A DNA stretch of 10,147 nucleotides, taken from the UHGV virus genome UHGV-1555203. The stretch is one strand, 5' to 3'. This document shows, piece after piece, positions 741 to 8,438 of the stretch (its first letter is position 1; each line of letters opens with the position of its first letter). Made by a program: the position numbers and the translations under genes. The stretch is from a virus. The notes beneath the pieces were generated by a model that was not told the origin of the DNA, did not search any database, and worked only from the letters and a program-made list of their open reading frames with translations.

Positions 741-1178
741 TTAACCAGTTACTTTTGAGCGGATCGGGTACGGCGTATTGGCATCAACATCCAGACTGAT
801 ACCCGCAGTGAATTTGCCAGCCGTTAGTGGGCCAGTTGCGACGGAGTAGTTAACACGCAGATATCGCTGAACACCGGCAGGCACCTTTGCAGAAACAACT
901 CGTTTACCTGCTGTCAGGGCGGTCTTTGCCAGTGCGCCACTATCATAAATAGTGGTCCATGAGCTGTTATTCTCACTCGTCTGCAACTGGATGTTTACAG
1001 TTGCATCACCGCTTGCCGCGGCGGCTGCGTTAACCAGCGCCCAAAACTCAAGCGGGTAACCCACGCCGATATCACGACGTTTTCCGTCAATTGGACCGAG
1101 ATCGATTACGTCAGTAGAAGCCGCGGTATTCGTAACCGCCTGAGCTTCGGAGAACATCAACAGTTTGTCGGTGATCAT
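741..1178 (-). CDS. Putative phage head structural / decoration-like protein (145 aa)
   Basis: ORF-track 741..1178; GGAG 7 nt upstream of the ATG; Ala/Thr/Gly/Val-rich beta-type composition typical of small virion proteins; immediately downstream of the major capsid gene. Function inferred from context only. Confidence 0.6.
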   Translation of the reverse strand: MITDKLLMFSEAQAVTNTAASTDVIDLGPIDGKRRDIGVGYPLEFWALVNAAAAASGDATVNIQLQTSENNSSWTTIYDSGALAKTALTAGKRVVSAKVPAGVQRYLRVNYSVATGPLTAGKFTAGISLDVDANTPYPIRSKVTG

Positions 1179-5122: not shown

Positions 5123-5190
5123 ATCAATGACTCCGTACGCAATTAAATTATTACCAATTTAACCACATATGATTTATTTATCGTAGGTGG

Positions 5191-5219
5191 TTGACATTTA
5201 ACGCACAAATTATTACCTT
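5191..5219 (+). promoter_or_regulatory. Candidate sigma70-type promoter for the plus-strand cassette
   Basis: Perfect -35 TTGACA (5191..5196), 17-bp spacer, -10-like TACCTT (5214..5219; weak, but T1, A2 and T6 present); embedded in an AT-rich block; inverted repeat TTACCT-TTC-AGGTAA (5213..5227) overlaps the -10. Confidence 0.4.
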
Positions 5220-5549
5220 TCAGGTAACAAAAGAGTTCATTCCGGTTACTAACCTGACTGGCTTGTCGTTAAATTGAACAGGTGGAGTGAGCTTTTATTT
5301 TGAGCAGTACGGCGTATGGCACATGCGCCGATAGCGGTCTGGATACGTTTAAGGGGCACCCTCCCTGGCTGTGGCAAACGAACCAGGTAGCCGGAATGTG
5401 CAAGTCGAGCGGTTTTATTCCGCGCACGGGGATTCACCATCCCGGCGATTCGGTGTGACGCCTCGGAAGAGACGAGGGTACAACGATGAGAGCATTTATG
5501 GAGCCGCGACAAAGTGTGGCGCCTTAACAGGCTAAGTGCTCTCAGCGTT

Positions 5550-5626
5550 GTGGCATTAGCTCAGTTGGACAGAGCAACCGCCTTCTAAGCGGTTGGTCGC
5601 AGGTTCGAATCCTGCATGCCACGCCA
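5550..5626 (+). tRNA. tRNA-Arg, anticodon UCU (reads AGA), 77 nt including encoded CCA
   Basis: Hand-folded cloverleaf: acceptor GTGGCAT/ATGCCAC (7 bp, perfect), D-arm GCTC-AGTTGGACA-GAGC, anticodon stem ACCGC/GCGGT with loop CTTCTAA (anticodon TCT), variable TGGTC, T-arm GCAGG-TTCGAAT-CCTGC, discriminator G, CCA. Close to E. coli argU-type tRNA but with different acceptor and anticodon stems. Confidence 0.9.
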
Positions 5627-5669
5627 GAATCACGCCTAAGGACCGTGATGCCAGAAGTTCCAGGTGCTT

Positions 5670-5711
5670 GGCGGTGATAGTTTCCCTTGAAGGACTATCA
5701 CCGCCCTTTTT
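5670..5711 (+). terminator. Intrinsic terminator downstream of the tRNA
   Basis: Perfect 12-bp stem GGCGGTGATAGT / ACTATCACCGCC with a 12-nt loop, followed by CTTTTTA. Confidence 0.6.
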
Positions 5712-5789
5712 ACAGCAGGACGCCATTGCGATGACTTCATGCTGTAAACCCGTACAGCCACGGAAGGCATAACTCATTGCTTCCAGTTC

Positions 5790-5812
5790 GCCCGGTTCGC
5801 CGGGCATTTTTT
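5790..5812 (+). terminator. Second intrinsic terminator / attenuator hairpin abutting the RBS of the 139-aa ORF
   Basis: GCCCGG-TTCG-CCGGGC (6-bp GC stem, UUCG loop) followed by A-TTTTTT, then AAGGTGAG (SD) and ATG at 5824. Confidence 0.55.
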
Positions 5813-5823
5813 AAGGTGAGATC

Positions 5824-6243
5824 ATGAAGACAATTGATATGTTGGCTAAGTATCTAAATGAATGGCCATTAAAATATTCTCGTATCGTTCAGGCTGAAGA
5901 CTGCATTTTTTATGGCGTTTTTGCTGGTAATGAAATGCATTACGAAGTAATTCAGAGTGAGGGACTGGCCGGGTTAACTCTTAGCGAAGACCATGGTACT
6001 AGCGTTACGTTCCATGACTGGATAACAGCACAACGTTCTGAAATGGAAAAAGGCGATGTTTTTGATATTTCTCGCGCTGTTTACGCTAAAGCAAAAAGTG
6101 ATAATGATTACATGAGCGAACACTTATACAACATGAAGTTACAATGCCTGCATGCGGCGCTTATTCAGAATGGGCACTTCGATAAAACAAGTGCCATCAA
6201 TATTGCGGAAGCCATCAACGCTGGATTTAATGCCATTAAGTAA
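5824..6243 (+). CDS. Orphan hypothetical protein (139 aa), moron-type accessory gene; no family recognised
   Basis: ORF-track 5824..6243; strong SD AAGGTGA 6 nt upstream of ATG; visibly AT-richer than flanking phage genes; opposite strand to all neighbouring genes; followed by palindrome and terminator. No TM segment or catalytic motif evident. Confidence 0.7.
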   Translation: MKTIDMLAKYLNEWPLKYSRIVQAEDCIFYGVFAGNEMHYEVIQSEGLAGLTLSEDHGTSVTFHDWITAQRSEMEKGDVFDISRAVYAKAKSDNDYMSEHLYNMKLQCLHAALIQNGHFDKTSAINIAEAINAGFNAIK

Positions 6244-6247
6244 CACC

Positions 6248-6259
6248 GTGACATGTCAC
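6248..6259. repeat. Perfect 12-bp palindrome GTGACATGTCAC, copy 1 (second copy at 8699..8710)
   Basis: Exact self-complementary 12-mer with shared 5' flank TAACACC; lies 5 nt after the stop of the 139-aa ORF and before its terminator. Confidence 0.8.
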
Positions 6260-6263
6260 AAAC

Positions 6264-6290
6264 AGCCAGCCGATGAGCTGGCTTTGTTTT
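6264..6290 (+). terminator. Intrinsic terminator after the 139-aa ORF
   Basis: AGCCAGC-CGATGA-GCTGGCT stem-loop followed by TTGTTTT; a second hairpin ATCCTC-ATCA-GAGGAT follows at 6291..6306. Confidence 0.6.
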
Positions 6291-6333
6291 ATCCTCATCA
6301 GAGGATATCAACGACATTATCCCCACCAGCGGA

Positions 6334-8409: not shown

Positions 8410-8438
8410 GTGGTAATAGTTACCGTTGTGGTAATAGT
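8410..8438. repeat. Tandem direct repeat GTGGTAATAGT (x2, 18-bp period) immediately upstream of the terS start
   Basis: Exact 11-mer at 8410..8420 and 8428..8438; on the coding strand reads ACTATTACCAC-N7-ACTATTACCAC ending 8 nt before the ATG. Confidence 0.7.

Follow-up and report, generated by a model that had tools for sequence, protein, structure and literature searches.

The putL and putR elements of phage HK022 are cis-acting antiterminator RNAs that bind the zinc-binding domain of the RNA polymerase β′ subunit. In the Bacillales, EAR (eps-associated RNA) is a pseudoknotted, mid-sized cis-acting RNA proposed to mediate processive antitermination of its own operon. Other RNAs, including C4 of phages P1 and P7, CI of phage P4 and the stable RNAs of the T4 tRNA cluster, stand at the head of their own operon and have ends set by tRNA-processing enzymes. 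GOLLD and ROOL are borne by phages and prophages, often beside tRNAs, and their function is unknown. The element described here is a conserved structured RNA encoded on the plus strand of a 10,147-nt stretch of virus genome UHGV-1555203 (the window), which is the head-morphogenesis region of a phiV10/epsilon15-type (Uetakevirus-like) Escherichia coli prophage. The RNA lies in a block at 5143-6333, between terL and the gp3 and portal genes, and this block is best explained as a repressor-controlled early transcription unit centred on the non-coding RNA. The RNA is viewed as a phage cis-regulatory or stable RNA within a conserved module of leader, tRNA and terminators.

The put elements and the RNA described here share their setting. 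Each follows closely on an early promoter under repressor control, precedes terminators and early genes, and is found in lambdoid phages that have no N protein, and neither has a dedicated protein encoded nearby. They differ in that put is ~70 nt, folds into two stem-loops and is present twice per genome, whereas the RNA is ~180–240 nt, contains seven helices and two pseudoknots, occurs once per genome and is followed by a tRNA or an acceptor-stem-like element. Homology to put is rejected, as size and fold differ and the covariance model of the RNA core (R1) scored at best 5.4 bits against the HK022 genome. The RNA may instead be a functional analogue of put, a suggestion as tentative as the proposed antitermination activity of which it forms part.

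EAR and the RNA are both pseudoknotted and of intermediate size, and cis antitermination is proposed for each, although they differ in fold and taxon, the context of EAR is not phage, and no Rfam match to EAR was found. C4, CI and the T4 RNAs resemble the RNA in being non-coding and co-transcribed with, or shaped like, tRNAs; C4 and CI, however, are ~70–80-nt antisense regulators, no Rfam match to C4 was obtained, and no target sites complementary to the RNA were identified. The RNA is likewise phage-borne and beside a tRNA in the manner of GOLLD and ROOL, but these are two to four times larger and derive from other taxa, again without an Rfam match.

Structure and covariation of the RNA

An earlier note on the window, made from its sequence alone, described a 330-nt leader in the block. 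The stretch is present but it is not passive, as it contains a conserved RNA of ~240 nt that comprises a core (5310-5487) and a long stem, P7, reaching to 5550. R1 detects the core as a single copy with 150 bits (E=7e-50), within the range of 134–165 bits observed at true loci, and returns one hit each in phiV10, mEp460 and the window. On the plus strand the core is built from helix P1 (5310-14 with 5326-30), P2a (5335-37 with 5391-93), P2b (5339-42 with 5383-86), the variable hairpins P3 (5343-82) and P4 (5407-25), P5 (5429-33 with 5439-43) and P6 (5461-65 with 5473-77). The pseudoknots are PK-A (5319-24 with 5396-5401; GCACAU with AUGUGC) and PK-B (5435-38 with 5452-55). P7 (CAACGAUGAGAGCA ... 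UGCUCUCAGCGUUG, 5481-5550) has a hypervariable apex and a 3′ end that abuts position +1 of the tRNA; in relatives the stem is kept by entirely different complementary sequences, with duplex energies of −17 to −28 kcal/mol. A stem closing the 5′ and 3′ ends (P0), sought by eye, was inconsistent between subtypes.

Covariation was tested with a hand-derived structure of five helices and the two pseudoknots on an alignment of 45 sequences sharing no more than 95.5% identity. Standard pairs occupy 95.3% of the pair cells, and double changes are found at 15 of the 32 pairs, in 103 cells. None of 500 shuffled controls reached the observed value on any of five measures, and slid controls paired in only 25–39%. 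Compensatory changes include G-C to A-U in P2a and C-G to A-U in PK-B, while the sequence of PK-A is invariant in all copies collected and so has no covariation support either way. Throughout the alignments invariant sequence blocks alternate with varying helices. The frequency of G-U pairs in these helices indicates that the plus strand is the functional strand, and disfavours an RNA read from the minus strand. A protein-coding leader is rejected, as core lengths fall in all three classes modulo 3 and it is helices, not codons, that are conserved.

Variants of the 3′ region were also observed. In one subtype, represented by seven loci, P7 is replaced by a different conserved 3′ domain, AUCAGCCAUUCACGYUAAGCAUC...GGACUGGAAGAGUUACCACUUGGAGACGGUCC, which carries a second GGAAGAG motif resembling the invariant P6 loop. 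The P7 apices of three other loci carry T-arm-like GGTTCGATTCC hairpins, none of which was called by ARAGORN. The P5 loop UCACC (5434-5438), whose partner in PK-B is GGUG, is additionally complementary to the ribosome-binding site AAGGUGA (5813-5820) of the gene that ends the unit. This complementarity may be a coincidence, since some members have a different ribosome-binding site (GAGAGGA).

Distribution and novelty of the RNA

In a BLAST search with the block, 5309-5553 matched hundreds of E. coli chromosomes and ~95-kb plasmids with ~82% identity, and the region is unannotated in those records. A more sensitive search identified the RNA in the lambdoid phages mEp460, cdtI, Stx2c and Stx2a phages and Ayreon, in P1, P7, D6, SJ46 and RCS47, in phages of Klebsiella, Enterobacter and Salmonella, and in a phage deposited as infecting Stenotrophomonas. 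The RNA is carried by three unrelated phage types (podovirus, lambdoid and P1-like). Approximately 130 copies were collected with two independent pattern scans, the first of IMG/VR and the other of species-representative genomes. The genome hits were all in Enterobacterales except for two short contigs from metagenome-assembled genomes classed as Bacillota and Lachnospiraceae. These contigs contain near-typical enterobacterial copies, and are probably mis-binned rather than derived from true hosts. Among 5,426 complete E. coli genomes, 1,829 harbour the RNA, O104:H4 C227-11 being one, at 2,455 places, 542 of which are on plasmids.

Searches of Rfam 15 returned no RNA match at E≤1 over the whole window other than the tRNA, and nothing relevant at E≤10 on 5140-5560 (421 nt) or on the mEp460 copy. 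A literature search found neither sequence words of the RNA nor a described RNA at this position. Two published prophage sRNAs were considered and rejected: the 77-nt svsR is part of the 3′ end of cI (PMC12803456), and HnrS is 66 nt. As far as can be told from these searches, the RNA would represent a previously undescribed family. A large, pseudoknotted RNA supported by covariation has been left unannotated in one of the best-studied organisms and in the model phage P1.

A predicted repressor-controlled promoter

The block opens with an AT-rich regulatory region (5143-5190) between the start of gp3 and the plus-strand promoter. This region, and with it the whole ~85-bp stretch of 5143-5227, is nearly invariant across phages of E. 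coli, Klebsiella and Salmonella, its conservation exceeding that of the flanking genes, and it probably contains the leftward gp3-portal promoter or a binding site for a regulator. The epsilon15 record annotates an integration host factor (IHF) site near the equivalent AT-rich stretch. The perfect −35 hexamer TTGACA reported in the earlier note is present at 5191-5196 (+), and is followed after a 17-nt spacer by a conserved −10 hexamer, TACCTT (5214-5219, +), which places the predicted transcription start near 5226. A generic sigma-70 scan made no call at this promoter, because the −10 fits the consensus at only three of six positions, nor at the PL-like promoter of mEp460; having missed both promoters, the scan gives negatives that carry little weight.

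A perfect palindrome, TTACCTTTCAGGTAA (5213-5227), covers the −10 and the predicted start. TTGAC and this −10/operator segment are invariant from Klebsiella to Salmonella phages in the five diverged phages compared. In phiV10 there are 15 copies of the motif type against ~1 expected, clustered in intergenic regulatory regions that include the gap between the repressor and the cro-like gene, and the GenBank record of epsilon15 labels the equivalent palindrome as a repressor-binding site. Since a repressor operator overlaps the promoter, the plus-strand unit is probably silent in the lysogen and fires upon derepression. The earlier note had envisaged expression from the prophage independent of the late genes; for the same reason this appears unlikely, and early expression following derepression is the more likely course. 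The operator-type palindrome (TTACCYNNNRGGTAA) is spread over the regulatory regions of phiV10, with sites close to the genes for the antirepressor, tail fibre and integrase and others that follow the replication genes; in the window, the 5′ end of terS contains a copy with two mismatches (8420-8434).

The predicted transcript begins with a 5′ leader of ~84 nt (5226-5309, +), the length of which varies among relatives. It contains a weak terminator-like hairpin (5242-5261, +), and in the epsilon15 record the corresponding stretch carries an annotated RNase III site.

The tRNA, trailer and terminators

The intact tRNA-Arg (anticodon UCU) recognized in the earlier note is located at 5550-5626 on the plus strand (ARAGORN; Rfam RF00005 with 73.3 bits against a gathering score of 29). 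It begins exactly where P7 ends (5549/5550), the junction, CGUU followed by GUGG, being conserved, and the same tRNA lies directly 3′ of the RNA in 49 of 112 loci. A conserved junction with either a tRNA or an acceptor-type element suggests that RNase P cleavage at the tRNA 5′ end would define the 3′ end of the RNA. At two loci (L046 and L058) what follows the RNA is a tRNA-like gene with a ~55-nt insert replacing the anticodon arm, and a truncated tRNA-His-like piece; ARAGORN made no call on these tRNA-like genes.

The tRNA plausibly supplies AGA decoding to the phage. AGA is found at 7.07 per 1,000 codons in phiV10; in E. coli the frequency is ~2 per 1,000. This codon usage, and the presence of the tRNA directly after the RNA in so many loci, fit an explanation in which the tRNA is the selected product and the RNA does no more than serve it as a structured 5′ leader, shielding the long untranslated transcript from Rho or nucleases and presenting the tRNA for processing. 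Such a role is improbable. The RNA is equally conserved in lambdoid and P1 contexts that have no functional tRNA, AGA codons are absent from the nine window genes checked (late genes and ORF139, the gene at the end of the unit), and the complexity and invariance of the fold go beyond the needs of a leader.

The 186-nt trailer that follows the tRNA displays 74–82% identity in dozens of loci. Just 3′ of the tRNA is a hairpin, AUCACG-CCUAAGGAC-CGUGAU (5629-5649, +), whose stem, with most of its loop, does not vary among 12 diverse loci (consensus AAUCACGCCUNAGGACCGUGAU, N varying). The intrinsic terminator T1 (5670-5711, +; scan hairpin 5670-5705) has a 14-bp stem and a U-tract, and is conserved with covarying stem pairs. 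Its U-tract doubles as the 5′ strand of a further conserved hairpin, UUUACAGC...GCUGUAAA (5708-5748, +), with a near-invariant loop, ACGCCAUUGCGAUGAC. A second intrinsic terminator, T2, consists of GCCCGGUUCGCCGGGC and a U run (5790-5812, +; scan hairpin 5790-5805), and its stem covaries, CCCGG/CCGGG versus CCCAC/GUGGG. A separate small RNA or a site bound by protein might occupy the ~100 nt that separate T1 from T2. Starting 2 nt after the T2 U-tract is a conserved ribosome-binding site, AAGGUGAG, with its ATG (5813-5826, +), which begins the slot for cargo genes described below. The third of the hairpin terminators listed in the earlier note, T3 (6264-6293; scan hairpin 6264-6283), stands at the end of the cargo and is convergent with terL; the phiV10 record annotates it as the terminator after terL on the other strand, where its tail reads GUUUGUG. 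Counting the weak site in the leader, the block contains four terminator-like hairpins, three of them strong, against 1.6 expected. In the wider family a terminator occurs within ~450 nt in 104 of 119 distinct downstream contexts, often as a pair ~100 nt apart.

A complex pseudoknotted fold with invariant junction nucleotides, placed 5′ of terminators and of a conserved ribosome-binding site with its ATG, could also be read as an attenuator that senses a ligand or factor, such as a metabolite, a tRNA or a host protein, and decides termination at T1/T2 in the manner of a riboswitch or T-box. The core, however, overlaps neither terminator, ~180 nt that include the whole tRNA lying between it and T1. 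No alternative antiterminator pairing was found and no Rfam riboswitch or T-box family matches the RNA. A sensing device of this type therefore has a slim chance of being correct, and a classical riboswitch is disfavoured.

The RNA in lambdoid phages, P1 and epsilon15

The RNA and the genes downstream of it have the same orientation in all annotated contexts that were examined. In mEp460 and Stx2a_1447 cI is followed by the RNA, and the RNA by the early-left genes. The interval between cI and the RNA in mEp460 contains a terminator and, spaced by 24 bp, two perfect copies of the operator motif found in its cI-cro region; on the other side of the RNA, two tandem terminators precede the early-left genes. 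Searches of mEp460 yielded no N-like protein, and there is no further perfect operator copy ahead of those genes. The genome contains six perfect operator copies, and only these are informative as the pattern with one mismatch is not enriched (26 found, 31 expected). The place of the tRNA in lambdoid copies is taken by an element with the acceptor-type pairing GUGGUGA/UCACCAC, which neither ARAGORN nor Rfam calls as a tRNA.

The RNA thus occupies, next to cI, the position that nutL and N hold in lambda. Most members contain a boxA-like sequence, UGCUCUUU or CGCUCUUU, in the 3′ strand of P7, as do lambda nut sites and ribosomal RNA (rrn) operons in their boxA, and tandem terminators end the unit as they do rrn operons. 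In contrast to lambda, there is no N gene (in mEp460) and no boxB-type hairpin, and the boxA-like sequence is base-paired here. Several members lack it, UGCUCUUU included, and reading P7 as boxA is therefore not universal within the family.

In P1 the RNA is within the C1-controlled ban operon, immediately upstream of ban, and is unannotated in the rich record of that phage. P1-type copies have a tRNA-Ile2 5′ of the RNA and are missing P7. In epsilon15 (L008 2551-2624) the RNA has been cut to a deletion remnant scoring 31 bits and there is no tRNA; the phage retains the operator-bearing promoter, a terminator and the cargo gene gp50.

Proposed role of the RNA

The reading that we favour, with a probability of roughly 0.4, is that the cis-encoded RNA acts as a processive antiterminator that allows RNA polymerase to pass the tandem terminators. 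On derepression the promoter would yield a transcript comprising the ~84-nt leader, the ~240-nt RNA, tRNA-Arg(UCU), the trailer with T1 and T2, the ribosome-binding site and ATG, and the cargo. The folded nascent RNA would act on the transcribing polymerase to cause read-through of T1 and T2, such that the downstream genes are expressed only after loss of the repressor. RNase P would cut at the tRNA 5′ end and release the RNA with a defined 3′ end, and the tRNA would in addition give the phage AGA decoding. As P7, the tRNA and 43 nt separate the core from T1, coupling between RNA and terminators would have to operate at a distance, through the polymerase. Release by RNase P is compatible with antitermination, as put needs no tether to the nascent transcript for its activity (PMC9378689). 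Consistent with the RNA being part of a leader are its co-orientation with downstream genes, the operator on the window promoter, the gene orders in lambdoid phages and P1, the frequent terminators downstream, the conservation of the trailer, ribosome-binding site and ATG whatever cargo follows, and the lack of a promoter-like site for ORF139 itself.

Several observations weigh against antitermination. The genome holds a single copy of the RNA, whereas HK022 has both putL and putR, and the RNA, at about three times the size of put, has no match in HK022. The P1 version is without P7, a downstream tRNA and tandem terminators. The terminator and cargo gene of epsilon15 persist even though little of the RNA survives there, and in a prophage with no cargo the module is intact. 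The boxA-like sequence is, as noted above, missing from several members. Tandem terminators close stable-RNA operons such as rrn as well, and T1/T2 could consequently be genuine ends. Finally, the conservation of an RNase P-type junction points to the release of a discrete RNA, for which a role in trans would fit equally well.

Such a role is the main rival to antitermination, and a somewhat less probable one. The early transcript of RNA and tRNA would then truly end at T1/T2, as in a stable RNA operon, and the RNA released by RNase P, ~240 nt with the 5′ leader removed and up to ~320 nt with it, would act in trans. Its target would be a conserved factor of the host or of the phage, such as the ribosome, an RNA-binding regulator, or a nuclease or defence protein, and cargo would be expressed only through terminator leak. 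The occurrence of the RNA in three unrelated phage types is consistent with this view, as are the junction to a tRNA 5′ end or acceptor-stem-like element, the maintenance of the module without cargo and the P1 version without downstream terminators. In addition, long invariant runs of loop and junction sequence stand beside variable helices, a pattern typical of recognition by a conserved partner. Action in trans leaves unexplained, however, why the RNA is always co-oriented with downstream genes in the annotated contexts, why the start codon of the cargo is placed inside the conserved module, and how the lambdoid early-left genes are transcribed past two terminators without an N-like protein. 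A broader formulation, which we regard as somewhat doubtful, is that the RNA, present in roughly one-third of the E. coli genomes and in P1, is a new class of RNA-only device, cut by RNase P at the embedded tRNA, which as soon as the prophage is derepressed would reprogram the RNA polymerase of the host or some other core machine of the cell, the module doubling as a universal expression socket for accessory genes.

Were the RNA to control read-through, it would join a single other class of phage RNA known to achieve this without a protein, and it would explain expression of the early-left operon in lambdoid phages that lack N. Action in trans would instead make the RNA a new early phage effector. 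On either reading a recurrent ‘hypothetical protein' region is redefined, at least two spurious ORF families having been annotated over it. In mEp460 and three prophage loci, for example, other ‘hypothetical proteins' are called over the RNA itself. In the window an 83-aa open reading frame (ORF) on the minus strand (5556-5807), which matches phrog_4647 and is annotated as p04 in phiV10, is most likely an annotation artefact, since it spans the entire tRNA and T1/T2, where conservation is accounted for by RNA structure. Together, the ORFs called over the RNA, tRNA and trailer look like artefacts arising from conserved non-coding DNA.

The cargo slot and ORF139

The 139-aa ORF listed in the earlier note (ORF139, 5824-6243, +) occupies a slot whose left junction is the conserved ribosome-binding site and ATG and whose right junction is the palindrome GTGACATGTCAC (6248-6259). 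The same ribosome-binding site and ATG front different cargo ORFs in other loci. The ORF139 family follows the conserved ATG at 28 loci, Gp49/Sf6-gp66 proteins (PF13876) at 25, a 292-aa protein at six, and there are several singletons. In a cargo-less E. coli prophage the module is kept through the ATG, which begins a mini-ORF of eight codons, and homology with the window resumes exactly at GTGACATGTCAC, just before T3. The mini-ORF may be a remnant or a leader peptide; peptides seen after the ribosome-binding site and ATG are MKYEFDGF (L165 2170-2230) and MEDEFDGF (L050). The conserved socket, from T2, the ribosome-binding site and the ATG to GTGACATGTCAC and T3, is an exchange site for accessory genes and should be useful in finding new phage cargo genes.

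ORF139 belongs to phrog_4846 (function unknown), and the earlier note was right that no family could be recognized for it. There was no match in Pfam, NCBIfam or PDB sequence searches, and none at E≤0.1 in PADLOC among known anti-phage defence proteins. The AlphaFold2 model is of low confidence (pLDDT 64.7, pTM 0.35), with a confidently predicted C-terminal helical hairpin, and Foldseek found nothing in PDB better than E=0.3. Homologues are confined to Enterobacteriaceae, and the three that were looked up all occupy the same slot downstream of the RNA. The family is modular, as its C-terminal ~50 residues (KSDxDY..LYNMKLQCLHAALIQ..AINAGFDAIK) are common to proteins with an unrelated N-terminal half (P0094-P0100).

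The whole 1.2 kb had been interpreted as an acquired accessory module, or moron, inserted between terL and the portal gene and expressed constitutively in the prophage from its own promoter, the 330 nt being an incidental leader. In favour of this, ORF139 is AT-rich (39.8% GC), polymorphic or absent in relatives and followed by a terminator (T3), as in morons, and the block contains a promoter-like −35 and terminators. The block is indeed AT-richer on average, at 46.5% GC against 51.6–52.2% in the flanking late genes, yet it is a mosaic in which the regulatory region (5143-5225) has 27.7% and the 5′ leader 39.3%, while the RNA (57.9%), tRNA (57.1%) and trailer (52.7%) are not AT-rich. Conservation of the block outside the ORF extends over the lineage and to unrelated phages, and its promoter/operator, RNA, tRNA and trailer are conserved in uetakevirus-like phages of E. 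coli, Klebsiella and Salmonella, with a deletion remnant of the RNA in epsilon15; comparison with related phages revealed none in which terL abuts gp3 or the portal gene, and the module is thus not an insertion polymorphism. In contrast to a typical moron, ORF139 has no recognizable promoter of its own, none being called between T1 and its ATG in the generic scan, whose sensitivity is low, and it makes use of the module's conserved ribosome-binding site and ATG, which follow two terminators. With a repressor operator overlapping the promoter and covariation supporting structure in the leader, a constitutive moron is very improbable, its non-ORF part being already contradicted. Instead, the module of promoter/operator, RNA, tRNA and trailer is ancestral to the lineage, not a recent insertion, and the ORF alone is the swappable cassette.

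Genes flanking the block

The records closest to the window are E. coli prophages and the phages HEMP4, PAS61 and phiV10. As the earlier note had it, the phage genes of the window are on the minus strand and joined, for the most part, by stop/start overlaps, and credible plus-strand features are confined to 5143-6333. On one side of the block are terL (7809-6334) and terS (8480-7806; PF03592). On the other side are the 68-aa gp3 homologue (5122-4916) and the portal gene (4901-3222; PF12236), past which lie, on the same strand, the genes for Bbp19, the protease/scaffold, the major capsid protein (PF20911) and Bbp16. The Bbp16 capsid-cement gene is intact in the window (741-1178), whereas in the most similar prophage, that of E. 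coli N25 (L003 2286-4036), it is interrupted by an IS3-family insertion.

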